NCBI GenBank assembly: GCA_021654395.1
Contig: AP024486.1
Span: 330,001-362,000 of the forward strand
Direction of reading: 5' to 3'
DNA length: 32,000 nucleotides
Origin: Candidatus Saccharimonadota bacterium
Lineage (GTDB): Archaea; Micrarchaeota; Micrarchaeia; Micrarchaeales; Micrarchaeaceae
Numbering within the stretch: position 1 is the first letter of the stretch; every line of letters starts with the position of its first letter. A program made the translations under genes and the position numbers. Shown one piece after another: positions 1 to 26,009 of the stretch. The notes under the pieces were generated by a model. It made no database searches and was not told the DNA's origin. It worked only from the letters and a program-made list of their open reading frames with translations.

Positions 1-309
1 TGTTAAACTCATAGGCTCTGTATACATCCTGAACTCTATTCTCTTTTTCAGCTTTATCAATCTCCTAATTTCCTTCTTGTTACTCTCTAGTTGCTCTGGT
101 GTTATATTCAGCTTTATCAATCTGTCGATAGCTTCTAACTCCTCCTTCTTATACATCTGCTTTCTTCTTAATCCTCTTAGGTCGCCTATAAGCTTATTCA
201 GCTCTGCTTTCTTATTCTTTATCTCTTTTACTATGTTGATAGCCTCCGCATTTCCAGACTTCTCAGCTATCTGGAAGATGCCTTCTGCAGCTTTACTCTC
301 TTGATTCAT
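1..309 (-). CDS. Coiled-coil protein, N-terminal 103 codons (gene continues past the left edge)
   Basis: Absent from the ORF track because no stop lies in the window. The reverse complement of 309..1 reads ATG AAT CAA GAG... = MNQESKAAEGIFQIAEKSGNAEAINIVKEIKNKKAELNKLIGDLRGLRRKQMYKKEELEAIDRLIKLNITPEQLESNKKEIRRLIKLKKRIEFRMYTEPMSLT with no stop. K/E/L-rich heptad-like composition. A TAAGGTA SD-like motif lies a few nt upstream on the minus strand. The 77..304 + ORF is its antisense shadow. Confidence 0.5.
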   Translation of the reverse strand, partial: MNQESKAAEGIFQIAEKSGNAEAINIVKEIKNKKAELNKLIGDLRGLRRKQMYKKEELEAIDRLIKLNITPEQLESNKKEIRRLIKLKKRIEFRMYTEPMSLT

Positions 310-353
310 GGAAATACCTTACTTTACAAATAGAGCATTCTAGATATATATAA

Positions 354-1508
354 TTATTTTAAATAAGCATATAAATTTATTAATCTATCTATTAAAGCCT
401 CTATATCGTACTTATTAGCGGTAGAAAGCATTCCTTTATACGTATCTCTATTCTCTATTACTTTTATTATACTATTAGCGCAGCTTATTGGATCCTTGCT
501 TCTGAATATCTCTCCGTTATAGCCATTCCTTATAATATCTTTTATAGCGTACTTATCTGCACCGACTACTGGCTTATTCATTGCCATTGCTTCTAATACA
601 GTTAATCCCTGTGTCTCGAATGTCGACGGTATACAGTACAGATCTAGTGCAGCATAATACTTTGGCAGAAGCCTATCATCTATAAATCCTGTAAATACTG
701 TTTTGCTCCCTATACCTGCCTTTAAGACTTCTCTTTTATATCTATTCTCTGCTGGGCCAGTACCTCCAATCAACAGCTTTATATTATATCCTTTGTCTAT
801 AAGTATCTTAGCTGCCTTTATAAGCGTTTCAACATGCTTCTCTAAGCTTAATCTTCCTATATAGCCTATAACTATCTCATTATCTCTAGCGATCTGCGCT
901 CTTATACTGTCTGCCTTTATCTTATAGTTAAATCTCTTTAGATCTATCCCATTTGGTATAACCTCAATATTCTCGATCTTATGCTTCTCTAGAAGAGCCT
1001 TTATCGACTCTGAAGGCGCTATAACGCGATCTACCTTATTATAAAAGAACCTCGAGTACTTCCACAGAAATGAAGCCTTACTTAATCCTTTAATCATTCC
1101 ATACTGCTTTAGTACCTCTCTACTCATAAATAATGTATGAAATGTTGCTACAGTGGGTACCTTAATAAGTCTTGCAAGAGTTAAGCCGGAGAAGCCTAAG
1201 ATAAATGGCGTATGTAAATGTATTACAGAGAAGTCATACTTAACGATCTTTGGTATTATATATATGGGAAAGATGCTTATATTGTACTGTGGGTATCTCT
1301 TAAACTTTATTCCAGGTATATATATTACATCCTTCTGCCTTTTATGTTCATTCTTTATAAAATCTTTATAGTGTAATGGTGCAAATATATATACTTTATG
1401 CCCTTTTCTCTCTAGAGCTGCTTTTGTATTTCTTATAGAGGTTACAACACCATCTACTGAAGGCAGATAAGAATCAGTAAAGAAAGCAATTCTTAAAGGT
1501 TCAGACAT
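354..1508 (-). CDS. Glycosyltransferase, family 4 (GT-B fold)
   Basis: 384 aa. The N-terminus RIAFFTDSYLPSVDGVV is typical of the GT4 N-domain. The C-domain has the E-x7-E-like region PSTFETQGLTVLEAMAMNKPVVG. The start lies 3 nt after the rpl15 stop. Confidence 0.8.
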   Translation of the reverse strand: MSEPLRIAFFTDSYLPSVDGVVTSIRNTKAALERKGHKVYIFAPLHYKDFIKNEHKRQKDVIYIPGIKFKRYPQYNISIFPIYIIPKIVKYDFSVIHLHTPFILGFSGLTLARLIKVPTVATFHTLFMSREVLKQYGMIKGLSKASFLWKYSRFFYNKVDRVIAPSESIKALLEKHKIENIEVIPNGIDLKRFNYKIKADSIRAQIARDNEIVIGYIGRLSLEKHVETLIKAAKILIDKGYNIKLLIGGTGPAENRYKREVLKAGIGSKTVFTGFIDDRLLPKYYAALDLYCIPSTFETQGLTVLEAMAMNKPVVGADKYAIKDIIRNGYNGEIFRSKDPISCANSIIKVIENRDTYKGMLSTANKYDIEALIDRLINLYAYLK

Positions 1509-1511
1509 AAA

Positions 1512-1901
1512 TCAGATCTCTACTGCCTTGCCATTAGCTTTCTCTATCTTCTCTATAGCCTTTTTAGAGAAAGCAGATGCTCTTATCTCTGCAGGAAGCT
1601 CTAGCTCACCATTACTTAACACCTTATAGTAAGGAAGCTCTATAATCTTACTATTACTGTCTTTTAATAGCTTGCTTATCTCTCTAAGGTCGATCTCTCT
1701 ATACTTTACTTTTATGCTTGTAAATCCTTTCCTTCTAATAAGCCATGGCGTCTTAGCTGTAACTCTTGTAAACTTATGCTTCTTACCTCCTTTTCCGACA
1801 CCTCCTCTATCTCCAGCCCCTCTACCATTCTTTATATTTCCTCTTCCCCATCTTCTGTTTCCTAGATACTTTCTTGATCTCTTCTTAATTCTTCTTACCA
1901 T
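1512..1901 (-). CDS. rpl15: 50S ribosomal protein uL15
   Basis: 129 aa, basic Gly-rich N-terminus RKYLGNRRWGRGNIKNGRGAGDRGGVGKGGKKHKF characteristic of L15. GTGAT SD 5 nt upstream. Directly downstream of rpl30. Confidence 0.9.
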   Translation of the reverse strand: MVRRIKKRSRKYLGNRRWGRGNIKNGRGAGDRGGVGKGGKKHKFTRVTAKTPWLIRRKGFTSIKVKYREIDLREISKLLKDSNSKIIELPYYKVLSNGELELPAEIRASAFSKKAIEKIEKANGKAVEI

Positions 1902-1910
1902 ATATAATCA

Positions 1911-2306
1911 CTATAGCATCCTTGAGAGTAGCTCGTTTACCTTTTCATCAGAGTAGCCAAGTATGCTGTCTGCCCTGCCTGGTCTCTTTGAGCCAGGAAG
2001 ACCCTTGCTAGGTGGTCTACATCTAAATGTCACTTTAGCTCTATCAGATAAGAGCTTATCTATATCTTCTTTGTCAGAGATCTCAAACTTCTTAAGAAGC
2101 TTCTTTAGCAGTCTTTCATCTATTCTCCCATATACAATATAGTCTTTACATTTCTTTAACATGCCTTCATAAGACTTATCTGGCTTAATAAGAGTAACTG
2201 TATATAAGCGCTTAAGTCTCAACCTATTAAGAGTCTCTTTTACATCACTTCTAACTCCTACTCTGCCTCTTATTCTTATAGCTACTATTATCTCATTATT
2301 ACTCAT
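1911..2306 (-). CDS. rpl30: 50S ribosomal protein uL30
   Basis: 131 aa. VAIRIRGRVGVRSDVKETLNRLRLKRLYTVTLI is the classic L30/L7e core. Canonical L30-L15 order. Confidence 0.9.
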   Translation of the reverse strand: MSNNEIIVAIRIRGRVGVRSDVKETLNRLRLKRLYTVTLIKPDKSYEGMLKKCKDYIVYGRIDERLLKKLLKKFEISDKEDIDKLLSDRAKVTFRCRPPSKGLPGSKRPGRADSILGYSDEKVNELLSRML

Positions 2307-10834: not shown

Positions 10835-10892
10835 TTTATATAATGCATAATAATCATTTTATAACTTAAAAGACATTATTCAATTCGTATAT

Positions 10893-10964
10893 GGGCCTAT
10901 AGCTCAGGAGTAGAGCGCTCGCTTCGCATGCGAGAGGTCGCGGGTGCGAATCCCGCTAGGTCCA
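10893..10964 (+). tRNA. tRNA-Ala (anticodon CGC)
   Basis: Cloverleaf folded by hand: acceptor GGGCCTA/TAGGTCC with the G3:U70 alanine identity pair, D arm GCTC-AGGAGTA-GAGC, anticodon arm CTCGC-TTCGCAT-GCGAG, T arm GCGGG-TGCGAAT-CCCGC, discriminator A. No intron. CCA is not cleanly encoded. Confidence 0.9.
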
Positions 10965-10980
10965 TCCATCTATTAATTGA

Positions 10981-10990
10981 TTTATATAAA
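10981..10990 (+). promoter_or_regulatory. Candidate TATA box (TTTATATAAA) for the 11026-20516 operon
   Basis: The only strong TATA-like element in the 61-nt gap between tRNA-Ala and ATG 11026. It lies 36-45 nt upstream of the ATG. Position only, no experimental support. Confidence 0.3.
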
Positions 10991-11025: not shown

Positions 11026-12675
11026 ATGATGGAGATGATTATTTATTTATTCATAGCAACATACATACTTTCATTTAACTTCGTGCTAGCTCTTATACCT
11101 ATAATAATCATACTTATACTTCTCTTTGCAGCTGGTGGTTCAAGATCCGGGATAAGCATTCTTGGGCTTATAGGATTCTCAGCTATAGTTGGAGCAGTAA
11201 GTGGGGGCAACCCTACAAAGGCTGTTAAGCGTGCTGGCAAGAATTTAAAGAAGACTTATGAAGGAATATATAAAAACCCTGCTTTGATGGAGTCTTTTAA
11301 TCAACTTGGTTACTCTTTAGCAGAAGGCGTAGAGAACGCTCGTCTTTATGCTAAAGCTAGATCTTATGGTCTTGACAGTAAAGTATCAAACGATGTAGCC
11401 AATAGTATAAAAGCAGGCTTTGAAAGTATAAATAATGCGATTGAAAATGATCTTAAACCTGCTTACAGATCAGGCCAAGCACTAAATCAATCACAGCAGG
11501 CTAATCTAAATCAAGACATAGATTATATAAACGATGCCTATGATCTTTATGCTGCATCTAATGCGGATGAGGAGGTATTCTATAACAAGTTCTTTGAATT
11601 GTTAAGAAAAAACCCGGAGTTGGCTAAGAGTCTTAATAATCATTTAATGAAAGTAATAGAAAATGATAAGCTTCTACCAAAAGCATTTAATAAAGCACCT
11701 TCAAATGCGACTGATGCAGAAAAACTTAGGGCTATTTTAGAGTCAGGAACGCCAGAAGCAGCCGTACTGAGAAATATAATTAAAAATTCTGTAGCTAAAG
11801 GCTTAGAATCAGCGTTTGCAGATAGGTATAATATAAAAAGAGTAACAAATAATCTGGCTTGGTATGCTACACAAGTAAGTTCTAATACACCTAAGTTTAG
11901 ATTAAAAAGTGCTAATGAAGCAAATATTGCGTATGAGAACCTGGCTAGAGCAAAGATGCTTTTTAACATAGACCCTGATGCAAATATAACTGCTGAAGCA
12001 TACAGAAGGGTTATAGATCAGGCAGCCGATAGGCATTTAGCAGGATACTGGAAAGCATTAGACAAGATGTATAAAGGTAATGCAGAATTACCTAGTTATA
12101 TGAGTTTGGGCTTCTACTCTGAAGAGGAATTCTTAAATAAGTATGTAAATGTGACTTCGCGCACAGGGCTTAAAGAAACATTATCTGGTCTATATGGTAG
12201 GAAAGAAAATGCAATGCGTGCACATATAAAAGTTCTTAAGAGACTTGCATCTATAGAGGCAGAGAGAAATTACTACTATAGAACTCTGGGCATGCACATA
12301 AAGCCAACTAATCCATTGGTATTTAATATTAAGGAGGCTTACTATGGAGGTCTCAGGAGATTAGAAAAGGCAACTCCACATAGAGTTAGTCCAGTATTTA
12401 GAAAGCTATTAGAGGATGAAAAAGGTAAAGTTCACTCAGGAAAGATTGAACTTAAGAGCTGGTTTATTCTACCAACTACATTCGAAGCTATGAGATTAGC
12501 GAGACATCCTAAAGATATAAAAGAAGCAGTTAGAAAAGCATTAACTAGACAGAACTTAAGAAAAACATTAGGCATTGCAAAGAGGTCACGTAGGGAAAGG
12601 AATGACTTAATTGAGGAATATCTAAAGGAACTTAAAGAGAAGAGAAGGTTTGAAAAAGAAAAGTTTATTAATTAA
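11026..12675 (+). CDS. Membrane-anchored helical protein of unknown function (operon gene 1)
   Basis: 549 aa. Two N-terminal hydrophobic segments (IIYLFIATYILSFNFVLALIPIIIILILLFAA; ISILGLIGFSAIVGAV) are followed by a K/R-rich stretch (KAVKRAGKNLKK, positive-inside). About 470 aa of hydrophilic Ala/Asn/Lys-rich sequence then ends in a basic tail KRSRRERNDLIEEYLKELKEKRRFEKEKFIN. No Walker A/B or other catalytic motif seen by eye. Confidence 0.75.
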   Translation: MMEMIIYLFIATYILSFNFVLALIPIIIILILLFAAGGSRSGISILGLIGFSAIVGAVSGGNPTKAVKRAGKNLKKTYEGIYKNPALMESFNQLGYSLAEGVENARLYAKARSYGLDSKVSNDVANSIKAGFESINNAIENDLKPAYRSGQALNQSQQANLNQDIDYINDAYDLYAASNADEEVFYNKFFELLRKNPELAKSLNNHLMKVIENDKLLPKAFNKAPSNATDAEKLRAILESGTPEAAVLRNIIKNSVAKGLESAFADRYNIKRVTNNLAWYATQVSSNTPKFRLKSANEANIAYENLARAKMLFNIDPDANITAEAYRRVIDQAADRHLAGYWKALDKMYKGNAELPSYMSLGFYSEEEFLNKYVNVTSRTGLKETLSGLYGRKENAMRAHIKVLKRLASIEAERNYYYRTLGMHIKPTNPLVFNIKEAYYGGLRRLEKATPHRVSPVFRKLLEDEKGKVHSGKIELKSWFILPTTFEAMRLARHPKDIKEAVRKALTRQNLRKTLGIAKRSRRERNDLIEEYLKELKEKRRFEKEKFIN

Positions 12676-12701
12676 TAATTAAAGATTAGTGGTAGTTACT
12701 T

Positions 12702-14255
12702 ATGCAAGTTAGCAGAGTAGCAGTATTTACAATCATAGCTTTAGCTATACTTTTAAGCTTAACGCTATCTCCAGTAATTAATAAGAGTATAATAAAGGAA
12801 ACAAATGTATTTATAGAAAAGAGCGCTGCTTCTTTTCAATTGAGTCTTTTCAATAAGATTCCTAGAGTAGCATATATATTACCAAGGCCCACTCCTATTC
12901 CAGGACCTGGCTCAGGTCAATCCGGTTCTGGTCAATCAAGCTCTAGCTCTACTCAATCGAGCTCTTCAAGTAGTACAACTCTTGTATCGTGTACATCTAC
13001 ACCTGGAAATAATCTAAACAGTACAATAATAGGATATATATATAATCTGTCATTTTATGTTTGGATTGGTGTATTAATCTCTTTCTTAATATTGGGAGTA
13101 GCATATATGATAAAAAAGATATATCCTTCAAAAAGCTTTAATGAGTTTTTTGAGGAGGAGCTCAGAAGTGCAGTCGAATCTTTAATTATTATAGGTATGG
13201 TTGTTGGTTTGATACTTTTTATAGGAGATGCTGCAGGCTCTATAAGCGCGAATATAGTACAGTCTACACAGACTAGTGGATTATCATTATCTGGTAAGGG
13301 TGTTGGCCTTCTATATTCGTCTACCTGCTACGATATAGGCTATATATTAGCTCAGACATATAATATATATAGCTATATAATAGGCGCTTCGGAGGGCGCA
13401 GCTACTGCATCTTCTGGTAGTTTAACTTTTGATCCTATATACCCTTTGCCATTTACACTTGGCTTAGTCTCTGTAGAAGCAGGTGGATCTGAGCCTTTAG
13501 GGCAGAATACAGCGTACTTTTATCTTTTCTCCTCAAGCTTAAGTACGGTTGGCTTCTTAAATTTAATAACATATATATTTGAGTATTATGCCTTCTATCT
13601 AATAGTCGGCTTTGGATTTGGTGTTGCTTTACCACTTGGGATAATCTTCAGATCTTTCACATTCTTAAGAGATATAGGCAATAGTCTTATAGGCATAGCG
13701 ATAGGCATAATGCTAGTATATCCTGCATTAGTCTCGCTCTTCATATATCCTATATTCAATTTTATGTTTAATAATCTGGTTCTGCCTGCAGAGCAGAGCA
13801 TAAACGCTATTAGTCAAGCAAACTTTCTAAGCTTTATAGGCAATGCTGTAGGCTTTATAGGCGATCTGCTTACAAGAGGAAACTCTTTCACTACTGGTGC
13901 ATTAAGCTGCAGCAACGCGCTTACAGCTAATCCACAGAATATATTTTCATATGGATTATCCATACCATTTGCAATCTTAAATTATTATATAACAGACATA
14001 TACTATGGTTTTGACACAACCTTTGGTTTAAACTATAATTGCTTTGTATTGGGCTATACAGAAGGCTTTTATTATGCTTTAAGCTATGGTATAAGTAATC
14101 TATTAACAATCTTCATAATTGGAGGCATACCACTTGTAATATTGTTAATATTAGATGTATTTGCAATAATAATGGGCGTGATAATAGTAGATAATATTAC
14201 TAGGGCATTGGGCGGAGAGCTAAAGAAGAGGGTTGGAAGTATAAGACTTGTGTGA
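12702..14255 (+). CDS. Polytopic membrane protein, paralog 1 of 6 (unknown family)
   Basis: 517 aa. N-terminal signal/anchor (VAVFTIIALAILLSLTL), then the linker PGPGSGQSGSGQSSSSSTQSSSSSSTT followed by a Cys. Many long hydrophobic segments. Shares blocks A, B and C with the next five genes (block B GIIFRSFTFLRDIGNSLIGIAIGIMLVYP at 13638-13724). Confidence 0.8.
   Translation: MQVSRVAVFTIIALAILLSLTLSPVINKSIIKETNVFIEKSAASFQLSLFNKIPRVAYILPRPTPIPGPGSGQSGSGQSSSSSTQSSSSSSTTLVSCTSTPGNNLNSTIIGYIYNLSFYVWIGVLISFLILGVAYMIKKIYPSKSFNEFFEEELRSAVESLIIIGMVVGLILFIGDAAGSISANIVQSTQTSGLSLSGKGVGLLYSSTCYDIGYILAQTYNIYSYIIGASEGAATASSGSLTFDPIYPLPFTLGLVSVEAGGSEPLGQNTAYFYLFSSSLSTVGFLNLITYIFEYYAFYLIVGFGFGVALPLGIIFRSFTFLRDIGNSLIGIAIGIMLVYPALVSLFIYPIFNFMFNNLVLPAEQSINAISQANFLSFIGNAVGFIGDLLTRGNSFTTGALSCSNALTANPQNIFSYGLSIPFAILNYYITDIYYGFDTTFGLNYNCFVLGYTEGFYYALSYGISNLLTIFIIGGIPLVILLILDVFAIIMGVIIVDNITRALGGELKKRVGSIRLV
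12900..12980 (+). repeat. Coding low-complexity tract (PGPG-SGQSGSGQ-poly-Ser/Thr) in paralog 1
   Basis: Direct reading of codons 67-93 of the 12702 ORF: cca gga cct ggc tca ggt caa tcc ggt tct ggt caa tca agc tct agc tct act caa tcg agc tct tca agt agt aca act. Confidence 0.9.
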
Positions 14256-14261
14256 TAGTTA

Positions 14262-15620
14262 ATGCAAATAAGGATAAGATATTATATATTGCTTATAATT
14301 ACATTAGCTTTATTATTTACTAGTATCTCTAGCGCTAGTATAACTGGAAATACAAATGCATGTAATGGAAACTTTGGTGTTAATGGTCAGAATAGCTATG
14401 TCAGCGGATGGGTTGGTATAGCCTTTTTAGCAGTAGCAGTAGTATTTATGATAGCGGCTTTTATGTACGCCATAGGTAATGCTGTGGCCTCTGTATCTCT
14501 AAGGAATAAGCTAATTAGCTACAGCAAGGCAGAGCTTATGCAAGGTGTCTTCTCAATTATACTCATATTTATACTACTATGGGTAGCGCAAGGAGTAAGT
14601 TCAGTCTCATGTATTATATTTTCTGATATATTTAGTAATACTGTAGCAGGTACAAACTTAAACTATCTTGCATACGCTGATCCGTTTACTGCTTCAGAGA
14701 TATTTTTCAACTATGTACTATATAATATAGGCTTCAATGTATACTTTAATGTAGTAGAGAAGGAAGGCCTGGGTCTGCTAACAAGCGCCAACTATCTAAC
14801 GGCAGGATATAACTATGTCTCTAGAATAATAAACGGAATTACTAGTGGTCTAGTTAAAGATGTTGGAGCTGAGATAGTACCGGAGCTTAATATCGAGGCC
14901 ATACAAAGTCTTGGTTATACATTCGCAGATTTCTTACTTGATATAGCAAATCCATTAGTTTTTATAGGAATAGCTATGATACTTATAGTTGTAATAGTCT
15001 TACCAGTTATACCATTAATTGCATTTACGGTTATACTACCAGTTGCGATAGTTATTAGATCTTTAAGCTTTATATCTAGCGGTAATCTTAGAAAAGTTGC
15101 TGATACATTCCTAAGTCTCGCTATAGGTCTATATTTTGTATTTCCTTTAACAGTGGCTATGGATATATACATATTAAATTATGTTTACTGCGGTAATGAG
15201 TTTAATCTAGGATCAGCAACTATAAACACTGCAAGCTGTAATCCTGGTTATTATAAGATGTTTTTAGACTCTGCATTGCCAAGCAATGCACTTAACATAG
15301 TTACATCTGGATATATATCATCTTCATCAAGCAGTTTAGGCTCTGTAACATCAGTTCCACCATCAACTACAATAAGCCAACTAGAATCAAGCACGCCTCT
15401 AGTCTATGGAGCAAATCTGCTATCTGGCTTTGGTGATGCGATATCTTACTACATAGACTTTCCAAGCTATCTGCTATCTTTTATAGCAACGGTCTCAGAG
15501 CTTTATTTCATAGCAGTGTTTTTACTAGGCCTAGATGTTGGCATAGTAATCGCATTTGTACAGAGCTTAGCAGATTCGATTTCAGGTTTTATAACGAGCA
15601 GTAGCATATTCGGTGAATAA
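14262..15620 (+). CDS. Polytopic membrane protein, paralog 2 of 6 (unknown family)
   Basis: 452 aa. Signal-like N-terminus (YYILLIITLALLFTSISSASI), Cys-containing segment NACNGNFG, Ser-rich tract YISSSSSSLGSVTSVPPSTT. Block B VAIVIRSLSFISSGNLRKVADTFLSLAIGLYFVFP at 15042-15146. A GTGAT SD-like motif lies 5 nt upstream. 6-nt gap to the previous gene. Confidence 0.8.
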   Translation: MQIRIRYYILLIITLALLFTSISSASITGNTNACNGNFGVNGQNSYVSGWVGIAFLAVAVVFMIAAFMYAIGNAVASVSLRNKLISYSKAELMQGVFSIILIFILLWVAQGVSSVSCIIFSDIFSNTVAGTNLNYLAYADPFTASEIFFNYVLYNIGFNVYFNVVEKEGLGLLTSANYLTAGYNYVSRIINGITSGLVKDVGAEIVPELNIEAIQSLGYTFADFLLDIANPLVFIGIAMILIVVIVLPVIPLIAFTVILPVAIVIRSLSFISSGNLRKVADTFLSLAIGLYFVFPLTVAMDIYILNYVYCGNEFNLGSATINTASCNPGYYKMFLDSALPSNALNIVTSGYISSSSSSLGSVTSVPPSTTISQLESSTPLVYGANLLSGFGDAISYYIDFPSYLLSFIATVSELYFIAVFLLGLDVGIVIAFVQSLADSISGFITSSSIFGE

Positions 15621-15622
15621 AG

Positions 15623-16993
15623 ATGAGTAGTATATTTACGCAAGTTAGCTCTGCTATAGGCTTCTTTGATATATCTGTTGTGGCAATATTAATATCATTC
15701 TTAATAGTAGCAATAATGTATGCCTTTGGTGCAGTTATAGATAATAATGAGATAAAAGAGAGGGCTGTTTCAGAGTTTGCAAACTCTGTTTATTCAATAG
15801 TATTGTTAGTTGCTATATTTGCTTTTCTTCTATTCTTTGCTAATGTATACATCTCAGCTATATCTACGACATCTTATAATAACTATGTGGCTTACTCATG
15901 TAACTCTCTAGAAGGCTCCCAGCTACCAATAATACAGAATAAACAATCGCAAGCTAGTCTTATATACCAACTATGCAACTTATATCTAAACTTAGGTCAG
16001 TTAAAAGGAAGAGCCTACCAGATAGATTATCCCATATCAACTGCAGCAATAACTCTAGCTAATATGTCAAATCAGACATTCTCTAATACAGTAGATATAT
16101 ACAGCATACAATCATATATCTACTACCTATCCGGATTAAAGGCAATATTTGGAATATGTACCCCAACAGCTGGATGCTTCGCGTATATATTTCAGCCTAA
16201 GGGCTCATTTCAAACCCCATCAGCTTTTGGAGTTAGAATATCTTACGCTCCTTATCTAGGATTAAGGATAGCATATAGCTCTATATCTCCAATAGCTGAT
16301 GGCATATCATTTGCAATGAACTTTATGCTGGGCCTATTGCTTATAATAACAATATTCATATATGCATGGCCTTATCTTTTAGCGTTTGGCATCATACTAA
16401 GAACCTTATCAATAACAAGAATGGTAGGTGGATTACTAATAGCAGCTATTCCTATAATTCTATTAGTACTTCCAACTCTGTTTGCAATAGAGTACATAGC
16501 ATTCAATAACGCCCAGAGTAATAATATATATACAAATATACTTGGTACAGATGCTGCAAATGTACTTGGTTATAATATACCTCAAGAGAAGCCGAATGGG
16601 CAGCTATACTACTATCAATTAAATCTTTTCGATGAACCAAATATAGCATATCTAGCAAATGCCTTAAATTGCAGTACTGGTAGTAATCTGCTATCAATGA
16701 CATCCGAGGACTTTGGATATCTTCTGATTCCATTCTCATCTTTATTCTCTTCTATCTCTAGTATAATAAATCAGCAGACTAAAGGAGTGCCGACATTCTA
16801 TCTTCCAAACTACTGCTCACCTAAGTACGCTCCATATCTTGTCTTCTATATGGCAAGGGCTTATGGCATAATAGCATCTGAAGCCTTTATATTAATTCTA
16901 TTTAATTTAATTATAATAGTAAGTGGAACATCAGCTTTATCTGGATTATTCGGTGGTGATGTTGGTATCGCAGGACTATCAAAACTACTATAA
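15623..16993 (+). CDS. Polytopic membrane protein, paralog 3 of 6 (unknown family)
   Basis: 456 aa with no N-terminal anchor or linker; it starts directly with the block A hairpin. Eight Cys lie in apparently loop regions. Block B FGIILRTLSITRMVGGLLIAAIPIILLVLP at 16385-16474. GGTGA SD at 15612-15616. 2-nt gap to the previous gene. Confidence 0.8.
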   Translation: MSSIFTQVSSAIGFFDISVVAILISFLIVAIMYAFGAVIDNNEIKERAVSEFANSVYSIVLLVAIFAFLLFFANVYISAISTTSYNNYVAYSCNSLEGSQLPIIQNKQSQASLIYQLCNLYLNLGQLKGRAYQIDYPISTAAITLANMSNQTFSNTVDIYSIQSYIYYLSGLKAIFGICTPTAGCFAYIFQPKGSFQTPSAFGVRISYAPYLGLRIAYSSISPIADGISFAMNFMLGLLLIITIFIYAWPYLLAFGIILRTLSITRMVGGLLIAAIPIILLVLPTLFAIEYIAFNNAQSNNIYTNILGTDAANVLGYNIPQEKPNGQLYYYQLNLFDEPNIAYLANALNCSTGSNLLSMTSEDFGYLLIPFSSLFSSISSIINQQTKGVPTFYLPNYCSPKYAPYLVFYMARAYGIIASEAFILILFNLIIIVSGTSALSGLFGGDVGIAGLSKLL

Positions 16994-18338
16994 AGGCAAG
17001 AGCAGAAAAGTGGTAATAGCATTGATACTTATAGCTTTAGCTTTATCATATACCTTTAGCTATTCATTTAGTAAATTACCACAAAGATCTAACAATGTAA
17101 TAGACTTCCAATCAAGCTCGTCTAGCAGCTCACAGATAGACTACTGTCCAATCATATATCCGACTTCTATAAATACAGCATCATCTCTTAATATTAGCTC
17201 ATTGTTTTCAATACTATTCATAGAAGTATTAGCAATGGCATTGATATATGCATTTTTGTATGCAATCTCTATAGCATTTAAGCTCGATAAGCTAAGATCG
17301 TATATTGTAGATAATTTGCCTTCGGTATATCTCGTAGTTATACTAGGATTTATAGTTCTTTTCCTTGTAGATATTGTATATGGTGTATCAAATCCAATAC
17401 AGTCTTTTAATAATGGTCAGTATAGTAATAATATATTTACATATGATGAAGCAACTCTATCAACCGCAATGGGATTCAGTGCAGTCTCATATGGTATATC
17501 ATCAACTATAGGTGGATTTATAGCAGATATTATAGAAAATGCAAATGAACTAGTTGGAGAAGAATCAGTAAATGTTGGCGGCGTATTTGCTCAATTAGGT
17601 TTAAGAGTCTTTAATATAGCAATAAATCCCCTGGTTGGATCTGGTATATTTGTAGAACGACCAGAAGAGTCTGGGGGATTAACCTTGGCGCTTCCTAGCT
17701 CTCCAGTAATATTTAATGATATAATATTGGTATACTTCTTACTATATGGAGCAGGATTGCTTCTGCTTTATATAATATCTGGAGCATTTCCTATCCTGTT
17801 CTTTATAGGATTACCTATGCTAATAATACCCCCATTAAAGCATCTTGGATCCTCTCTTATAGCTATATTTATAGCATTTTATATCGGCTTTCCAGCCCTG
17901 TTCTATCTTTTTACTAATATGCTAGGTACAGTAGCAGCAGGCTCAAGCGCAGCCTTAACTCTAGATTTCACAAACAACATAGCTACTCTATGCAATGCTC
18001 TTAATAGTCTAACTTCATCATCTACAACGTCATCTAGTTTATCCATTCCATTATTATCGCAGCTAGCACAGTTAATAGGCATATTTGGAGATACATTAAA
18101 TACAATATATGCGTTCATACAGGCGCTTTATGGTATAACATTATCTACAGTGTATAATGGAATAACTCCAACGGGCCTAATGAGTATAGACTTTTTAATA
18201 ACTATTCTACCTGGAGCTTACATAATGACCTCACTAGTGTTTTCTATATATATAACATTATATCTAGTAGAAAGCTTAGGAGAAGTATTAGGATCAAGCA
18301 ATATATCCGTAGAATCTGTATTCAAAGAGGTGCTGTAA
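16959..18338 (+). CDS. Polytopic membrane protein, paralog 4 of 6 (unknown family); start uncertain
   Basis: The track ORF starts at GTG 16923 (71-nt overlap). In-frame ATG 16959 gives MLVSQDYQNYYKGKSRKVVIALILIALALSY (basic n-region plus hydrophobic anchor). GTG 17010 is also possible. Poly-Ser linker FQSSSSSSSQIDYC. Block B IGLPMLIIPPLKHLGSSLIAIFIAFYIGFP at 17805-17894. Confidence 0.75.
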   Translation: MLVSQDYQNYYKGKSRKVVIALILIALALSYTFSYSFSKLPQRSNNVIDFQSSSSSSSQIDYCPIIYPTSINTASSLNISSLFSILFIEVLAMALIYAFLYAISIAFKLDKLRSYIVDNLPSVYLVVILGFIVLFLVDIVYGVSNPIQSFNNGQYSNNIFTYDEATLSTAMGFSAVSYGISSTIGGFIADIIENANELVGEESVNVGGVFAQLGLRVFNIAINPLVGSGIFVERPEESGGLTLALPSSPVIFNDIILVYFLLYGAGLLLLYIISGAFPILFFIGLPMLIIPPLKHLGSSLIAIFIAFYIGFPALFYLFTNMLGTVAAGSSAALTLDFTNNIATLCNALNSLTSSSTTSSSLSIPLLSQLAQLIGIFGDTLNTIYAFIQALYGITLSTVYNGITPTGLMSIDFLITILPGAYIMTSLVFSIYITLYLVESLGEVLGSSNISVESVFKEVL

Positions 18339-18339
18339 T

Positions 18340-19386
18340 ATGATAACGCTAACCGGAATACTCGGAAGCATACAAGCAGAATTTCTTGCGTTTGGCAGCA
18401 TAGCGATACTTACAGTAATAGTTGTAGCAGCATTTATATACATGCTAGCATCATTTATAAACAATGGGGGTCTTAAAGAAAAGATGAAGGATGCTGTATT
18501 TAATGCATTTGCATCTCTAATAATGTTAAATCTATTTGTATTCTTCTTTAATCTAGTTAACTTACCTATATACAACGCATACTCAGCAATAGGATTACTT
18601 CCCACAGGAGTTAATCCTAATCTAGAACCAATTCTATCTAATTGTATTATCGGTGCTTATTCTTTTAGTACTAAAACAATAACAATATATAACGCATCGG
18701 TATGCGATGTGGCTCAGCTTTACAACTTTGGCGTAACATCATTCTATGGGATATATTATATAACTTTAGCGACAGTACTATTCCCTCAGATAGAGGTTGC
18801 AGCAGATGTTTTTGGTATTGGTACAGTATCATCAGCCTTTGGTTTCTTTAATAATATAACAGAAAGTGGATTGGACTTTCTACTAGAGATAATATTCTTC
18901 CTACTTCTATTCGATGCTCTCCAGTTCATTATACTGAATGCATCATACATAATATTTCTTTTGTTTATAGCAATAGGTCTAATAGCAAGAATATTTCCAT
19001 TTGCAAGAAAGTTTGGTGGTGGTCTTATAGCACTTGGATTAACTTTAGGTCTAATATATCCTCTTATCGCTTCTGTGTTATATGGATATGTGAACACTGC
19101 TATATATCAAACAGAGCTTAGTTATATTATAAACACCGCTACATCGTCAACTTCAAGCAGCGCTATTATTGCTACTACAAGCAATCCATCACTTAGTATA
19201 TTCTATTCAATTCCTACTATAATAAAAATACTAGAAGGTCTTTTCTATATAGCAGGACTAGTTATAGCGGGATCTTCAATACTTCCTTTAATAATATTAG
19301 CAATACTGGATGGCTTTGTAAAAGATCTATCCGGTTTATTCGGTTTGCAGTTAGAGATAGGATCTTTATTTAGTGGTTTACTATGA
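18340..19386 (+). CDS. Polytopic membrane protein, paralog 5 of 6 (unknown family)
   Basis: 348 aa, short type (no N-terminal anchor or linker). GAGGTG SD at 18327-18332. 1-nt gap to the previous stop. Block B IGLIARIFPFARKFGGGLIALGLTLGLIYP at 18973-19062. Ser/Thr tract TATSSTSSSAIIATTSNPS. Confidence 0.8.
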   Translation: MITLTGILGSIQAEFLAFGSIAILTVIVVAAFIYMLASFINNGGLKEKMKDAVFNAFASLIMLNLFVFFFNLVNLPIYNAYSAIGLLPTGVNPNLEPILSNCIIGAYSFSTKTITIYNASVCDVAQLYNFGVTSFYGIYYITLATVLFPQIEVAADVFGIGTVSSAFGFFNNITESGLDFLLEIIFFLLLFDALQFIILNASYIIFLLFIAIGLIARIFPFARKFGGGLIALGLTLGLIYPLIASVLYGYVNTAIYQTELSYIINTATSSTSSSAIIATTSNPSLSIFYSIPTIIKILEGLFYIAGLVIAGSSILPLIILAILDGFVKDLSGLFGLQLEIGSLFSGLL

Positions 19387-20516
19387 TGGCGTACATCTAC
19401 ATATCATTAGTATTATTAATTGCATCACATCTCATACTGCTAATACCTGGAAGTGGGGGCCCACCACCAACAGGCTCGCAGCAGCTAATATGTAGCTCAC
19501 CAGGCTTTAATGGCTTGCCTGCTAGTCTATTACCTTCCTATATAGCAGAATGGTACTGTCCAATAAACTCATTTATAGTCGCTGAACTCAATAGCTATAT
19601 CTACTTAATAAGCCTTGTTCTTATTATACCGTACTTAGTATCTTCAGTACTAATATCAATAGGAATAGCTTTTAAATTAGATAAAGTAAGAAGATATGGC
19701 GTTGCAGAGCTCTATGATGCTGTTGCCTCATCAATAATGCTTATACTATTTATCTACATATCTGCGATACTCTTTGGGGACATACCCGGAATATACGTCG
19801 GTCCTGTAGATCCTTACACATACGTTATATTTAACATTAATAATATACTGCAAGAGCTAGAAAGCTTATATACTAACTTATACTATAGCGCCTATGGGCC
19901 TTATACTATTACATCTCTAACTATATCTTTAATACCAAATCTGTTTAATCTGTTGAATCCTGTAGCAAATGCAATACTAAGCACCTTCTATCTTGGATAT
20001 CTGAACTCTTATGTTATTCCAGCGTTAGCACTGAGCAGCATAATTATATCTGCAACAGATCTATTAACATTAGAGCTATACTTAATAGAGTTCTTTGGTA
20101 TAATAGCAATACCTGCATTTATTATACCTGGCTTATTAATTAGAGTATTTCTTCCATTAAGAGGAGTCGGAGCTTCGATGGTTGCTATAGGCTTTACATT
20201 ATTCTTAATTGTTCCTACTCTATTTTCTATAGCTGTCTATCTGACTTCTAATACTGTATCTGGTTCATTAGAGAATGCAATAGGGTTAGCACAATCTCTA
20301 AGTGGAGTTAATGCAGTAAAGTATACTGGTAGCTCTCTTGCTTTGGGCGTTAGCGTTACATTTGGTATAGAGAATGCTCTAGACCAGATATTTCTATTAG
20401 CACTCTTCTATCCTGCATTAATAGTCGTTGTAGCATTCTCTGCTATACAGCAGCTTACATCGATATTAGGGGGAAGTGCACAGGTAGGGCAGAGATTTAG
20501 AGCAGCATTCATATGA
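19383..20516 (+). CDS. Polytopic membrane protein, paralog 6 of 6 (unknown family)
   Basis: 377 aa. ATGA overlap with the previous gene. N-terminal anchor YIYISLVLLIASHLILLI, then linker PGSGGPPPTGSQQLIC. Block B PGLLIRVFLPLRGVGASMVAIGFTLFLIVP at 20127-20216. Confidence 0.8.
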   Translation: MMAYIYISLVLLIASHLILLIPGSGGPPPTGSQQLICSSPGFNGLPASLLPSYIAEWYCPINSFIVAELNSYIYLISLVLIIPYLVSSVLISIGIAFKLDKVRRYGVAELYDAVASSIMLILFIYISAILFGDIPGIYVGPVDPYTYVIFNINNILQELESLYTNLYYSAYGPYTITSLTISLIPNLFNLLNPVANAILSTFYLGYLNSYVIPALALSSIIISATDLLTLELYLIEFFGIIAIPAFIIPGLLIRVFLPLRGVGASMVAIGFTLFLIVPTLFSIAVYLTSNTVSGSLENAIGLAQSLSGVNAVKYTGSSLALGVSVTFGIENALDQIFLLALFYPALIVVVAFSAIQQLTSILGGSAQVGQRFRAAFI

Positions 20517-20761
20517 GAGCAGTGACCACTGTAGCCACACTTCTGTTTTAGATAGCATTAAAGCCTAAGCGGCATAACGCCTTGCATAATCATAGCCAGT
20601 ATGCGGCAGGTCTCACTCTGCTATATAAGGCTCGTAGAGTCATCGCTTTCTCTTATATAGCAGATCTCCTTTCTGTTCCGCATACAAAGACTTATCTGTT
20701 GGCTCATATGGTGGAGCTTCCTCCGCTCTACAGAGCGGTAGCTATCCATGGATCACTACTC
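20517..20761 (-). ncRNA. rnpB: RNase P RNA (compact archaeal form, about 245 nt)
   Basis: The minus-strand reading begins GAGUAGUGAUC CAUGGAUAGC UA CCGCUC-UGUA-GAGCGG AGGAAGCUCCACCAUAUGAGCC and ends GCUAUCUAAAACAGAAGUGUGGCUACAGUGGUCACUGCUC. P1 is GAGUAGUGAUC paired with GGUCACUGCUC (11 bp including G-U pairs). P2 is GGAUAGC paired with GCUAUCU. P3 is the hairpin CCGCUC/GAGCGG. A CR-I-like GAGGAAGCUCC (consensus GAGGAAAGUCC) and a CR-V-like ACAGAAGUGUGGCUA (consensus ACAGAAnnnGGCUUA) can form P4. An internal perfect 13-bp helix is UCUGCUAUAUAAG/CUUAUAUAGCAGA. Local GC is visibly higher than the surroundings. Confidence 0.72.
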
Positions 20762-20968
20762 TCATTTTATTGCCAATCTTATATCGGATTTCTTAACAGT
20801 CCTTCTTTTAGCATGCTTAGCCAATAGGACTGCTTTTTTAGCTATAGCTATAGCATAGGCTTCGAGATATCTCTCTAACTCCTCAATGGCAGCAGGGCTA
20901 ATACGCTTAGCGCCATTATCCTTTAATAGCTTCTTTAAAGCGCTCCTCTTAATGTACATAATTATCAT
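20762..20968 (-). CDS. Archaeal histone (HMf family, histone fold)
   Basis: 68 aa. The pattern RISPAAIEELERYLEAYAIAIAKKAVLLAKHAKRRTVKKSDIRLAIK is a canonical archaeal histone (...A...L......A...A.HAGRKTV...DI.LA). Confidence 0.85.
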   Translation of the reverse strand: MIIMYIKRSALKKLLKDNGAKRISPAAIEELERYLEAYAIAIAKKAVLLAKHAKRRTVKKSDIRLAIK

Positions 20969-22570: not shown

Positions 22571-23305
22571 TTATATATATCTTAATCTGCCCAGCTCGCC
22601 AAAGTCTAGGCTCTCATTACCATCTATAAGTATAGCATGTAGCTTATCTATATTACATCTTCTTAACAATGGAGAGAGTATCTGACTCTTTGGTATTATA
22701 TTAAGATCTGTACCAGTAGAGTAATACCCCAAAGCAGGTAGTACTAGAATTCTATGCTTATTACACCTTCCATACAAGAAGCACTTATACTTTCTTTTTG
22801 CTCCTACTTTAGTATATATAGTAACTGCAGGATGCTCGTGGCCCATTATTATAGTATCTATATCACTAATATCTAGATCCACATCTCCATGAGTAAACAG
22901 ATATCTGTCTATCTTAACATACTGATCATAGCTCTTAAATTTAAATGCATCCTTATATCTGTCTATAAAGTTATCATGATTTCCCTTTATAAAGATCATA
23001 TCTAAAGATAGATCTTTAAGGAATCTGATAAACTCGTATAGCTCATTAAACTCCCCTAAAGAGACTTCGCTGAACTCGTTTTTTATATCGCCTGTTACTA
23101 TTATGCCCTTTGGCTTAAATCTATCATAAGCCCTCTGGATCTTATCTTTTATCATCTTTAAGCTTGCTTTTGGTATTAGTATTCCAGAGCTTCCCATAAC
23201 ATCTTCGTAGCCCAGATGCAGATCTGTAGCTACTATATAGTCTAATGTTCTTATATAAGCTATCTCTAATCCATCAAGAATCTCAATATCATTATCTAGT
23301 ATCAT
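22571..23305 (-). CDS. Calcineurin-like metallophosphoesterase (PdeM/MPE-like, Lhr-associated)
   Basis: Motifs ATDLHLG (DxH), TGDIKNEF (GD), IKGNHDN (GNHD/E), GHEHP (GH..H). The start overlaps the Lhr 3' end by 14 nt. Confidence 0.75.
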   Translation of the reverse strand: MILDNDIEILDGLEIAYIRTLDYIVATDLHLGYEDVMGSSGILIPKASLKMIKDKIQRAYDRFKPKGIIVTGDIKNEFSEVSLGEFNELYEFIRFLKDLSLDMIFIKGNHDNFIDRYKDAFKFKSYDQYVKIDRYLFTHGDVDLDISDIDTIIMGHEHPAVTIYTKVGAKRKYKCFLYGRCNKHRILVLPALGYYSTGTDLNIIPKSQILSPLLRRCNIDKLHAILIDGNESLDFGELGRLRYI

Positions 23306-26009
23306 CTTCCTTTATACTTTTTATAACAAGATTATATAGCTTCCTAAGCTGCATTCTCTTCTCTTCAATCATTGTTACATCTGCATGTCCAAATGTTATT
23401 ATGTTATGTGAGAATGGCGATGGATATCTAGTCTTTATAAAGACAACCTTTATATCACCCTTCTTTATAAGATCCAAGATCTTTTCAGTATTCCTTATAT
23501 CCATAGTATCCTCAAAGATCTCTCTATATGTCTCTTTAAGTATTGGAAAGTCCGGATACTCCTCCTTTATAACCTTTAGAACGCTCATAGCATTAAGTTG
23601 CTGCTTTCTTACAGTTATATTTCTCTCTATATACCTTCTTAGTATCATGAAGCCTCTTGCTGCAACATGCCTGAACTTCCTCTTCATAAGCTCAGTGTTT
23701 ATTATATTCCTTCTAAGTAATGCAAGCCTATCCTTATTTATTATCTCATTAAATAGTTCTTCTATTGTATCCTTATCTATAGCATCTTTAAAGTAGCTAT
23801 CTATCTCAAATAGGAAGCCATTATCATTTACAAGTATTCTTATATCAGTATCCAGCTTCTCAGCAAGTATAGTACTAAGCATTCTTGATAGAGTATCATT
23901 AACTCTTCTACCAAAAAGTGAATGAAATATTATGTAGAATGTGTCTTTATTGTCTATATTATCTGTTAGCTCAGCAAGTATCTCTTTATCACTTCCTATC
24001 TCCTTGCAGTACTTATACTGCTCCACGAAGTATCTCAATATCGCTTCTTTGCCTTCATCGTTTGTAGGTAGATTGTCTAAAACCTTCTTAATTCTTTGAT
24101 TAGCTGATCTATAATTAGCGTATATACTTAGCTCTTTAATATTATCCTTAACAAGATCAAACATCAGTCTTCTGAACTCACCTATCTTTAGAGCCAGATC
24201 AAAGCTTAAAGGTAGCTCTTCAGAGAACCATGGCGGTATAGTTGGCTGCTTAGAGTCGGATCTCACAACATAGCAGTTATTCAATCTGCTATACTGAAAC
24301 TTATATAGCTTCCCGCCAAGAGTAAATATATCCCCTGGCTTCAGCTTCTCTAGAAACTCCTCTTCAATAGTTCCTATCCATTTCTTGTTCTCTAGAGATA
24401 TAACATTTATAGATACCTCATCCGGTATGGTTCCCGTATTCTGAAAGTATATCACTCTAACAGTCTTACCTCTCTTACCAAATCTGTTATCCTCTAGCCA
24501 TATCTTTGCATATACCTTTCTACTTTCTAAGCTTACGTACTCCCCAGCAAGATACTTCAATACAGATAGATAGTCTTCCTTACTTAGATCTTTATATGGA
24601 TATGCAGATCTTATTAGCATAAATGCATCATCTACATCCCACACATCCTCTATAGCCATTCCAACTATATGCTGCGCTAATACATCTAAGCAGTTTCTTG
24701 GCATCTGGAAAGAATCTAGATACCTATTTACTCCATAGTATGACATTATGGAGCATTCTATTAAATCGTCTCTATTCATTACTATAAACTGGCCTCTGGC
24801 TGTAGCTTTATAAGAGTGACCAGATCTTCCTATTCTTTGTATGGCCCTTGTTATACTCTTTGGTGATCCTACCTGTATAACATCATCTATGCTTCCTATA
24901 TCTATTCCAAGCTCTAAGCTTGTAGATGTTACAACGCATTTGAACTTACCTTTCTTTAGGTTCTCTTCTACCTCTAGCCTTACATTTCTAGATAATGAGC
25001 TATGATGTGCAGCTATCTCTTCATCCTTAAATCCGAATCTTCTCTTAAGATTAAATACAACTCTTTCTGTTCCGCTTCTTGTATTTGTAAAGATCAATGT
25101 AGTCCTATGCTGTTGTACTATATCATTGATAAGCTTATAAGCCTTATCTTCTATCTCTGTTTCATTTATATTTATTAGATCTCTTGCTGGACTTAATGTC
25201 TTTATATCAAACTTCTTACTCCAGCCAGCATTTACAACTAGACACTCTCTAGGCTCACCATTAGATAGCCCAACAAGGAACTTTGCAGCCTCATCTAATG
25301 GATATATTGTTGCGCTTAGACCTATTCTTATAAGCTCGTTCTCTGCTAATCTCTGCAGCCTCTCTAGAGATAATGATAGATGAACTCCTCTCTTACTACT
25401 TACAAGCTCGTGAAGCTCATCCACTATAACATATCTGACTGTCTTAAAGGCTTCCTTAAACTTTGTTGTAGATAATGCTATTGATAGAGTCTCAGGTGTT
25501 GTTATAAGTATATTTGGTGGCTTTCTAAGCTGCTTCTGTCTATCACTTGCAGTTGTGTCTCCTGTTCTTATACCGATGCTTATCTTCTTTAGCTCCACTC
25601 CATATCTATCTTTTATCATATTATAGATCTCTTCTATTGGCTCTGTTAGATTTCTATATATATCATTATTTAATGACCTTAATGGCGATACATAAACACA
25701 GTATATCTTATCATCTAGCTGATTCCTTTCAGCAAGGTCTATAAGCTTGCTTATTATAGCTAAGAAGCCAGCTAGAGTCTTACCAGAGCCTGTAGGTGCA
25801 GTAACAAGTATATTATGCCCTTCACTTATTATCTTGAATGTATATAGCTGTGGCGGTGTCAGCTCCTTGAACTTAGATCTAAACCACTCTCTGACATAAT
25901 GATTTAATACGCTTAAGCTTTCCTCTTCAGTAAATGGCTTATCAACTAGCTTTATCATATTCTTTAAATTAACTAAGTATATTAATAATATCTTACGCTT
26001 AGGTATCAT
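23292..26009 (-). CDS. lhr: Lhr-type ATP-dependent DExH helicase
   Basis: Motif I APTGSGKTLAGF, motif II VIVDELHEL, motif III GLSATI, motif VI QRIGRSGH. The long C-terminal region is typical of Lhr (DEAD-associated domain). The track start 26009 shares a CATG with the divergent gene. The internal ATG at 25958 (MIKLVDKPFTEEESLSVLNHYVREWF...) is the more likely start. Confidence 0.85.
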   Translation of the reverse strand: MIPKRKILLIYLVNLKNMIKLVDKPFTEEESLSVLNHYVREWFRSKFKELTPPQLYTFKIISEGHNILVTAPTGSGKTLAGFLAIISKLIDLAERNQLDDKIYCVYVSPLRSLNNDIYRNLTEPIEEIYNMIKDRYGVELKKISIGIRTGDTTASDRQKQLRKPPNILITTPETLSIALSTTKFKEAFKTVRYVIVDELHELVSSKRGVHLSLSLERLQRLAENELIRIGLSATIYPLDEAAKFLVGLSNGEPRECLVVNAGWSKKFDIKTLSPARDLININETEIEDKAYKLINDIVQQHRTTLIFTNTRSGTERVVFNLKRRFGFKDEEIAAHHSSLSRNVRLEVEENLKKGKFKCVVTSTSLELGIDIGSIDDVIQVGSPKSITRAIQRIGRSGHSYKATARGQFIVMNRDDLIECSIMSYYGVNRYLDSFQMPRNCLDVLAQHIVGMAIEDVWDVDDAFMLIRSAYPYKDLSKEDYLSVLKYLAGEYVSLESRKVYAKIWLEDNRFGKRGKTVRVIYFQNTGTIPDEVSINVISLENKKWIGTIEEEFLEKLKPGDIFTLGGKLYKFQYSRLNNCYVVRSDSKQPTIPPWFSEELPLSFDLALKIGEFRRLMFDLVKDNIKELSIYANYRSANQRIKKVLDNLPTNDEGKEAILRYFVEQYKYCKEIGSDKEILAELTDNIDNKDTFYIIFHSLFGRRVNDTLSRMLSTILAEKLDTDIRILVNDNGFLFEIDSYFKDAIDKDTIEELFNEIINKDRLALLRRNIINTELMKRKFRHVAARGFMILRRYIERNITVRKQQLNAMSVLKVIKEEYPDFPILKETYREIFEDTMDIRNTEKILDLIKKGDIKVVFIKTRYPSPFSHNIITFGHADVTMIEEKRMQLRKLYNLVIKSIKEDDTR
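25977..25990. promoter_or_regulatory. Candidate shared bidirectional TATA region (GTATATTAATAATA) between lhr and the 26008 gene
   Basis: AT-only TATA-like element about 20-30 nt from both the minus-strand ATG 25958 and the plus-strand ATG 26008/26017, consistent with leaderless transcripts. Positional inference only. Confidence 0.3.

Follow-up and report, generated by a model that had tools for sequence, protein, structure and literature searches.

What do seven adjacent genes, none of them assignable to a named protein family, do in the streamlined genome of a symbiotic archaeon? We addressed this question for genes g1–g7 of ARM-1, the cultivated thermoacidophilic DPANN symbiont Candidatus Microcaldus variisymbioticus (PMC8784108, PMC11329633), using a stretch of 32,000 nucleotides (nt) of contig AP024486.1 (positions 330,001 to 362,000), here called the window. 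The first two genes are identical to ARM1_0369 and ARM1_0370 of 'Candidatus Micrarchaeota archaeon' ARM-1, located on a contig of 814,439 bp. An earlier note on this DNA had proposed that g1 encodes a cytoplasmic adaptor and g2–g7 six diverged copies of one polytopic subunit, together forming a membrane or surface assembly. Profile and pairwise comparisons showed that g2–g7 are one-to-one orthologs, in conserved order, of a six-gene array (P1–P6) of the Micrarchaeaceae, which in these relatives is linked to genes of the kind found in type IV secretion systems (T4SS).

Paralogy and membrane plan of g2–g7

The six polytopic genes are true paralogs. Each product scored 22–39 bits against a hidden Markov model (HMM) of the other five (leave-one-out; g2 38.5 bits, z = 10; g3 25.4 bits, z = 7.8), which bears out the mutual homology asserted in the earlier note. 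As a control we used 300 local shuffles preserving the hydrophobic layout, which gave a mean of about -25 bits and a maximum of -3 (z = 8–10). Since the shuffled sequences never exceeded -3 bits, the homology reflects more than composition. Pairwise BLAST among the six found weak, collinear similarity.

Alignment and hydropathy gave a common plan for the six proteins. It starts with an optional signal or transmembrane (TM) segment and a Ser-rich, Cys-containing outer segment, continues with TM-A, a short basic loop, TM-B and an outer loop of ~100–130 amino acids (aa), and, after TM-C, a loop with the motif R-x5-R-x2-G-G and TM-D, ends with another outer loop, TM-E and a short tail finishing in LGG...G. 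Hydropathy, the positive-inside pattern and the placement of cysteines fit an outside N-terminus, about five TM helices, an inside C-terminus and a big loop after TM2, the features of the published topology of VirB6; the helix number also agrees with that of CedE (PMC11868833). The cysteines had been described as paired, and their counts are indeed even (4, 4, 6, 2, 2 and 2 in g2 to g7). The arginine loop reads RSFTFLRDIGN at residue 317 of g2 and RIFPFARKFGGG at residue 217 of g6. The best conserved of the paralogs is g4, whose ortholog alignment has C118, C179, C350 and C398 invariant and the motif WP...G..LR....TR..GG. The most diverged is g5, whose loop motif no longer has its first Arg.

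Direct family assignment failed for all seven proteins, which were without significant match in Pfam, NCBIfam and PHROGs. Walker A, HExxH and WWDYG motifs and class III signal peptides were not detected in a scan of the seven, again as previously reported, and DxD-type motifs and matches to GT-C/AglB, FtsX-like permeases or type IV pilins were absent from Pfam, NCBIfam and motif scans. A glycosyltransferase, an FtsX-type permease, a type IV pilin and a mobile element were rejected as identities for want of matching domains, profiles or motifs. One observation of the earlier note did not survive: it had described numerous N-x-S/T sequons, yet g2–g7 hold 12 in total (none in g3 and g7) against ~23 expected from shuffles, so its N-glycosylation argument fails.

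The orthologous array in relatives

A profile search of 1.84 billion representative proteins retrieved 2,246 family members at E <= 1e-3 and 812 at E <= 1e-10; word-index searches with g2 and with the six-paralog alignment recovered essentially only the queries. All named members in 20 sampled clusters were from Micrarchaeota (Micrarchaeum ARMAN-1, A_DKE, Anstonellaceae) or from bins under other labels whose proteins are nearly identical. The family core has no named model in Pfam or NCBIfam. Repeats of the CARDB, PKD, Ig or SprB type were found in a few giant members. Separately, arrays with giant members of 640–1,460 aa were seen in two Anstonellaceae-type loci (L058, 7786-24374; L061, 1-14595), where they adjoin proteins of 1,300–2,900 aa without Pfam domains and no ATPase is in view.

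In Candidatus Micrarchaeum A_DKE, phmmer matched each of g2–g7 to a single partner among six consecutive genes, the order being preserved. The g7 ortholog there is Micr_00871, which lies within a 16-gene same-strand cluster expected, by position, to extend from about Micr_00864 to Micr_00879; by phmmer g7 matched locus L002 (10001-11617) at 6e-55. We then built ortholog-group HMMs from 34–44 sequences per position, and these matched g2–g7 one-to-one at 2e-26 to 4.5e-95. The order p244-P1-P2-P3-P4-P5-P6-p277-p276-ATPase-p101-p127-p242-p784, in which p244 is a 244-aa polytopic protein, recurred in 52 species-representative loci and in further metagenome loci, and one or more pilin genes were found just 5' of p244 wherever a locus extended that far. 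Most deviations from this order are contig truncations; a few loci are without one member or have a split open reading frame (ORF). Most motif residues and cysteines are kept across orders. The seven genes had been called unassignable, but comparison with relatives shows that the six paralogs are positional orthologs of the array in ~60 Micrarchaeaceae loci. The absence of homologs or conserved synteny, which according to the earlier note would weaken its interpretation of the genes as a system, is contradicted by 2,246 relatives and a P1–P6 order that is kept.

The cluster occupies a fixed chromosomal site, between a carbamoyltransferase gene and a topoisomerase VI-B gene. This bears on the idea that the cluster is an integrated plasmid or virus beside a tRNA-Ala gene. 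A tRNA-Ala gene does lie directly upstream of the ARM-1 operon, and T4SS genes are typically found on mobile elements. However, domain scans of the 32-kb window found no integrase, the operon has a G+C content of 0.33–0.36 similar to its flanks, the array is vertically conserved at its fixed site in Micrarchaeaceae, and no match was found in plasmid, phage (tblastn of the family consensus) or viral-contig collections. We give almost no credence to a mobile element here. Domains of relaxases, coupling proteins and integrases were also absent from both the window and the scanned Micrarchaeaceae cluster genes.

Beside the main cluster of locus L057 lies a minimal module (1-2044, minus strand), in which a gene for a T4SS_pilin-like protein of 121 aa is accompanied by one family member of 348 aa and by a p277/p276-like gene cut by the locus end; the family member is its only polytopic protein, and the module could represent the ancestral single-copy state. 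In locus L074 (89-6416) five genes upstream of p244 match the pilin-like profile; four encode much larger proteins (283–677 aa), which may be pilin-anchored adhesins or minor pilins. A 901-aa ORF of locus L059 (10001-12706) matches both the P2 (1e-84) and the P3 (1e-136) group HMM; this ORF may be a natural fusion of the neighbouring paralogs or else a frameshift of an error-prone assembly, P1 being fragmented on the same contig.

Partner genes and a VirB6-like reading of the array

We next examined the genes that accompany P1–P6 in relatives. An ATPase of ~505 aa is encoded downstream of P6-p277-p276 in ~60 loci. It has the Pfam domains DUF87, AAA_10 and TraG P-loop, its PDB matches are to HerA and to VirB4 (4ag5, 2.2e-7, residues 58-327), and its NCBIfam matches are CedD (1.7e-18), VirB4-like CD1110 (1e-17) and CedB (2.9e-16). 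Against the TrbE-like ATPase of pNOB8, an archaeal conjugative plasmid, hhalign gave a probability of 94.5%. As all matches fall below equivalog cutoffs, the protein ranks as a relative at the family level, short of a named ortholog; judged by these profiles, a VirB4/CedB-class ATPase is encoded with the orthologous clusters of relatives.

The two proteins between P6 and the ATPase, p277 and p276, consist of two TM helices and a ~200-aa cytoplasmic domain. Four of 36 match CedB weakly (best 3.1e-4), and they weakly match residues 24–276 of an 894-position VirB4 model. This suggests that VirB4 is split here into N-domain proteins (p276/p277) and a catalytic protein; CedB and CedD likewise divide VirB4 N-domain functions (PMC11868833). 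The small proteins encoded upstream of p244 combine a signal peptide with a pair of hydrophobic helices; of these proteins, 10 of 16 match Pfam TrbC/VirB2 (best 6.3e-6), and two match T4SS_pilin, one at 26.2 bits against a cutoff of 26.6. On the combined matches of the ATPase, p276/p277 and the small proteins, the cluster appears to be a relaxase-less type IV secretion relative of the Ced/Ted kind (PMC9905601).

With these partners in view, a multi-subunit small-molecule permease or transporter formed by the six paralogs, the ATPase linkage then indicating a novel ATP-driven importer, is hard to credit. In its favour, the polytopic proteins have a charged cytoplasmic loop that is conserved and, in relatives, a P-loop ATPase as neighbour; however, no transporter family was matched, the ATPase is of the FtsK/HerA/VirB4 class and not ABC, and VirB2-like pilins are co-encoded.

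Are P1–P6 themselves VirB6-like? Their position in relatives makes them the membrane proteins encoded between pilin and motor. Two of 113 family members matched NCBIfam CedE at 4.2e-5; CedE, with five TM helices, is a paralog of CedA and a structural homolog of VirB6 (PMC11868833). When the pilin profile was compared with the paralog N-termini by hhalign, P2 reached 70% probability (E 4e-5) and three others 5–19%, while P3, P6, reversed sequences and other TM families stayed at <= 1%. The profile aligns to the N-terminal Cys and TM-A region of the paralogs, and this similarity of pilin and hairpin mirrors the reported relation of CedA to CedA1 and of VirB6 to VirB2 (PMC9905601). VirB6-type homology of P1–P6 is, on these profile matches, likely but unproven. 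Because the P1–P6 orthologs sit between pilin genes and a split VirB4/CedB-like ATPase, the comparison with VirB6 arrays, offered by the earlier note as a loose analogy, has become the best lead, with weak CedE matches to accompany it.

P1–P6 are, we consider, probably the VirB6-like channel or platform module of a type IV secretion derivative that is chromosomal and resembles Ced/Ted. The six ancient paralogs would share a ~5-TM core with the N-terminus out and the C-terminus in. Its first, pilin-like helical hairpin would have a short basic cytoplasmic loop, the large Cys-containing outer loop would follow TM2, and the second hairpin would bear the cytoplasmic R-x5-R-x2-GG loop. Within the cytoplasmic membrane, P1–P6 would assemble into a channel or platform of hetero-oligomeric make-up, which would be a core of the VirB6/CedA kind. 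This core would belong to a chromosomally fixed, relaxase-less type IV secretion derivative which across Micrarchaeota also has VirB2-like pilins and a VirB4/CedB-type ATPase made of two N-domain proteins and a catalytic protein. The Cys-containing loops would point into the space under the S-layer, whereas the cytoplasmic R-x5-R-x2-GG loops may contact the split VirB4 of relatives. The job of the machine would be the contact-dependent transfer of macromolecules (presumably DNA and/or other cargo) that links the symbiont with its host or with kin. In ARM-1, P1–P6 form a separate operon led by g1, and the energising and pilus parts are either encoded elsewhere or lost. We infer the VirB6 homology, the hetero-oligomer, the cargo and the function in ARM-1 alike. 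The hetero-oligomeric membrane or surface assembly with a likely role in cell contact, as first proposed, is a reasonable reading.

Several observations weigh against the VirB6-like reading. The CedE link is carried by just the two members named above, and Pfam VirB6/TrbL matched none of the 113 at E <= 1. A search of the PDB with the family profile returned no chain at E <= 10 save a chance match to MCM8 (E 1.2), and the polytopic protein of pNOB8 showed no similarity (nor was any seen for its pilin-like proteins). Both AlphaFold2 models are too poor for fold comparison or other use, with a predicted local distance difference test (pLDDT) score of ~43 (g1, single-sequence, 42.8; g6, from a 6-sequence alignment, 42.6). 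All pilin matches lie below curated cutoffs, and the loop motif is degenerate in g3 and g5 of ARM-1. The p244 protein of relatives could be the true VirB6 equivalent, P1–P6 then being another component. Lastly, HMMs of the non-paralog cluster components found none of them in the window, and a search extending over ~10 kb on its upstream and 8 kb on its downstream side found no pilin, p244, p277, p276 or ATPase gene; a DUF87 ATPase was specifically absent from both flanking stretches and a pilin-like ORF from beside the operon. The other ~760 kb of the genome may yet contain the ATPase gene. An ATPase scan of the genome collection is uninformative about ARM-1 because it used over-specific N-terminal patterns; it recovered only Micrarchaeaceae proteins of at least 64% identity.

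ARM-1 thus has six intact paralogs with no linked pilin or ATPase, and since locus L079, ARM-1-like in being without p244, pilin and adjacent ATPase, shows the same, unlinked arrangements exist outside ARM-1. Both loci would suit a different view, in which P1–P6 (with g1) are in ARM-1 a passive port or docking platform for host-made nanotubes and no longer a secretion machine of its own. Cryo-electron tomography of ARM-1 showed tubes entering a barrel-shaped envelope complex (PMC11329633). The candidate structure would be this 21-nm barrel of unassigned composition, a docking-like feature beneath the six-fold S-layer, and the large Cys-containing outer loops of the paralogs would be in keeping with it. 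Set against this, outer loops of 80–130 aa per subunit seem small for a 21-nm barrel, and genes for the ATPase and the pilin may simply be located in another part of the 814-kb genome. We regard such a port as unlikely. A more elaborate version, to which we likewise assign a small chance, combines a Micrarchaeota-wide T4SS derivative, whose core is a hetero-hexamer of the six ancient VirB6-like paralogs, with an ARM-1 branch in which this core has been uncoupled from pilus and motor and is the 21-nm barrel port for host nanotubes. If true, the hetero-hexamer barrel port would be the symbiont-side gateway for the uptake of host material.

Returning to the type IV secretion reading, we compared the cluster with known systems. 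Ced of Sulfolobales (CedA/CedE, CedA1, CedB/CedD) and Ted of Thermoproteales are likewise chromosomal, relaxase-less archaeal type IV secretion derivatives (PMC9905601, PMC11868833), and they share with Micrarchaeota an ATPase of the VirB4/HerA class; their VirB2-like pilin and their one or more VirB6-like polytopic proteins have putative counterparts in the Micrarchaeota cluster. In Ced the polytopic component is duplicated (CedA/CedE), as it would be in Micrarchaeota, and VirB4 N-domain functions are divided (CedB/CedD), as is suggested for p276/p277; the ATPase of the relatives scores best on the CedD and CedB models, and two family members match CedE, although membership of Ced/Ted stays below curated thresholds. 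The Micrarchaeota cluster differs in having six ordered paralogs instead of one or two, larger Cys-bearing outer loops, a catalytic ATPase separate from two N-domain-like proteins, and the extra proteins p244, p101, p127, p242 and p784. Its hosts are DPANN symbionts and not Thermoproteota, and in ARM-1 the array stands alone with g1.

Other symbionts offer parallels. The Rickettsiales rvh T4SS (PMC2653234, PMC7648143) also has tandem, diverged polytopic VirB6 paralogs, some with long extensions, and also belongs to obligate symbionts with reduced genomes, its T4SS genes being scattered across several loci. Rickettsiales, however, are diderm bacteria and their paralogs have a recognisable TrbL/VirB6 domain, whereas the Micrarchaeota family fails that model. 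The chromosomal T4SS of Patescibacteria, the candidate phyla radiation (PMC12102498), is found in ultra-small episymbionts and is likewise VirB4-centred, with VirB2-like pilins, VirB6-like proteins and mostly no relaxase; it differs by its bacterial MPF-FATA lineage and by a single detectable VirB6, with no six-paralog array. Transposon data cited in the same paper indicate that virB6 and PrgI genes are essential for epibiotic growth in one Patescibacteria strain. Nanohaloarchaeal giants of the SPEARE type (PMC10266531) are a DPANN surface apparatus with a VirB4/TraG-like domain and a proposed role in host interaction, and some Micrarchaeota family members are also giant, with CARDB/PKD/Ig repeats. 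In SPEARE, unlike here, one giant protein has Ig repeats fused to the ATPase, and no similarity to P1–P6 was found.

No prior description of the Micrarchaeota cluster, read here as a probable DPANN derivative of type IV secretion that resembles Ced/Ted and has six paralogs at its core, was found in the searchable literature. It would extend the picture of domesticated conjugation machinery drawn from Ced and Ted to a third archaeal lineage, and would be a candidate contact-dependent transfer machine conserved across Micrarchaeota, parallel to the T4SS used in epibiotic growth by Patescibacteria. An array fixed at six paralogs is unusual in design, and from it a channel of the VirB6 type built as a hetero-oligomer is predicted. 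For the question of how DPANN archaea gain physical access to their hosts, the operon and the pilin and VirB4-like genes of its relatives are testable candidates.

The leader gene, the operon and its flanks

The leader protein g1 had been predicted to face the cytoplasm. Its two N-terminal TM segments, 86 K/R and 60 D/E residues and lack of Cys agree with this, and on the TM and charge layout and the absence of cysteines the hydrophilic domain, which ends in a very basic tail, fits the cytoplasm. A word-index search of 5.8 billion proteins returned only the self-match, and HMM, jackhmmer and hhalign comparisons found g1 unrelated to every locus compared and to the Micrarchaeaceae cluster families. 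A 691-aa protein encoded directly 5' of P1 in locus L079 (5107-7182) is a possible positional and architectural counterpart. Its N-terminal TM hairpin resembles that of g1, and the protein also has a stretch rich in Gly, a hydrophilic region that is charged and a basic tail; its 33% identity with g1 across the 69-aa hairpin is not significant. By all these comparisons g1 is a lineage-specific orphan with at most this one doubtful counterpart. The data support an N-terminally anchored cytoplasmic protein beside six diverged polytopic copies, but the '1+6' layout does not hold as a conserved unit, P1–P6 being conserved and g1 not.

ORF calls confirmed the seven ORFs on one strand (Table 1), with junctions of +26, +6 and +2 nt, an overlap (g4/g5), +1 and -4 nt. 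The Shine-Dalgarno (SD)-like motifs previously noted before three internal starts were verified, and the reading of the genes as a single compact operon is supported. The start of g5 is ambiguous (GTG 16923, ATG 16959 or TTG 16962), and the size of the g4/g5 overlap depends on the choice. GGTGGTG lies immediately 5' of the ATG, and the database version of 458 aa (P0004) agrees with the TTG.

This compact layout bears on the proposal that the operon is a decaying, functionless remnant of a Micrarchaeota T4SS-like locus. About ten other cluster genes are absent from the locus, and the degenerate loop motifs of g3 and g5 could be signs of decay. Against this, the ORFs are intact, tightly coupled and preceded by SD-like motifs, Cys and most motif residues are kept across orders, and 9.5 kb is spent on the operon. 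Because seven intact, coupled genes persist in a 0.81-Mb genome, decay is the less likely explanation, and we judge it very unlikely.

Table 1. Positions of the operon genes and neighbouring features in the window
Feature	Position	Strand	Remarks
tRNA-Ala(CGC)	10892-10968		directly upstream of operon
Putative operon promoter	10981..10989	+	TATA-like box tttatataa, ~40 nt 5' of g1 ATG; predicted from sequence
g1 (ARM1_0369)	11026..12675	+	2 N-terminal TM helices and ~480-aa K/R/E-rich domain
g2 (ARM1_0370), P1 ortholog	12702..14255	+	signal/TM, Ser-rich linker, 5-TM core; P1 group HMM (34 Micrarchaeaceae sequences) 8.9e-48
g3, P2 ortholog	14262..15620	+	P2 group HMM 2.3e-58; SD-like GTGAT 14252-14256
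g4, P3 ortholog	15623..16993	+	P3 group HMM 4.5e-95; SD-like GGTGA 15612-15616
g5, P4 ortholog	16959..18338	+	P4 group HMM 2e-26
g6, P5 ortholog	18340..19386	+	minimal core, 348 aa; P5 group HMM 1.1e-57; SD-like GAGGTG 18327-18332
g7, P6 ortholog	19383..20516	+	P6 group HMM 2.7e-74; start overlaps stop of g6 (ATGA)
Reduced archaeal RNase P RNA	20520-20758	-	Rfam RF00373 56.1 bits, E 4.9e-15
Short archaeal histone gene	20762-20968	-	CBFD_NFYB_HMF 1e-10; between RNase P RNA and M50 protease gene

Neither of the two ARM-1 papers gives supplementary data on the operon genes. An independent short-read assembly of the ARM-1 co-culture (L001/L081, Logan contig DRR248898_1400) breaks within g4.

Upstream of the operon lie an HMG-CoA reductase gene and the tRNA-Ala(CGC) gene, with the TATA-like box between the latter and g1. 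The flanking genes had all been assigned to housekeeping families; the feature immediately downstream of g7 does not encode a member of any protein family but is a reduced RNase P RNA. Its 239 nt span the entire 288-position RF00373 model with a folding z of -4.6, and its score lies below the gathering score of 84, so that a default gathering-threshold scan missed it. Further downstream and unrelated to the operon, a large Lhr-type helicase gene (DEAD, Helicase_C, WH_Lhr and DEAD_assoc domains; 23292-26009, minus strand) overlaps the start of a metallophosphoesterase gene (22571-23305, minus strand).

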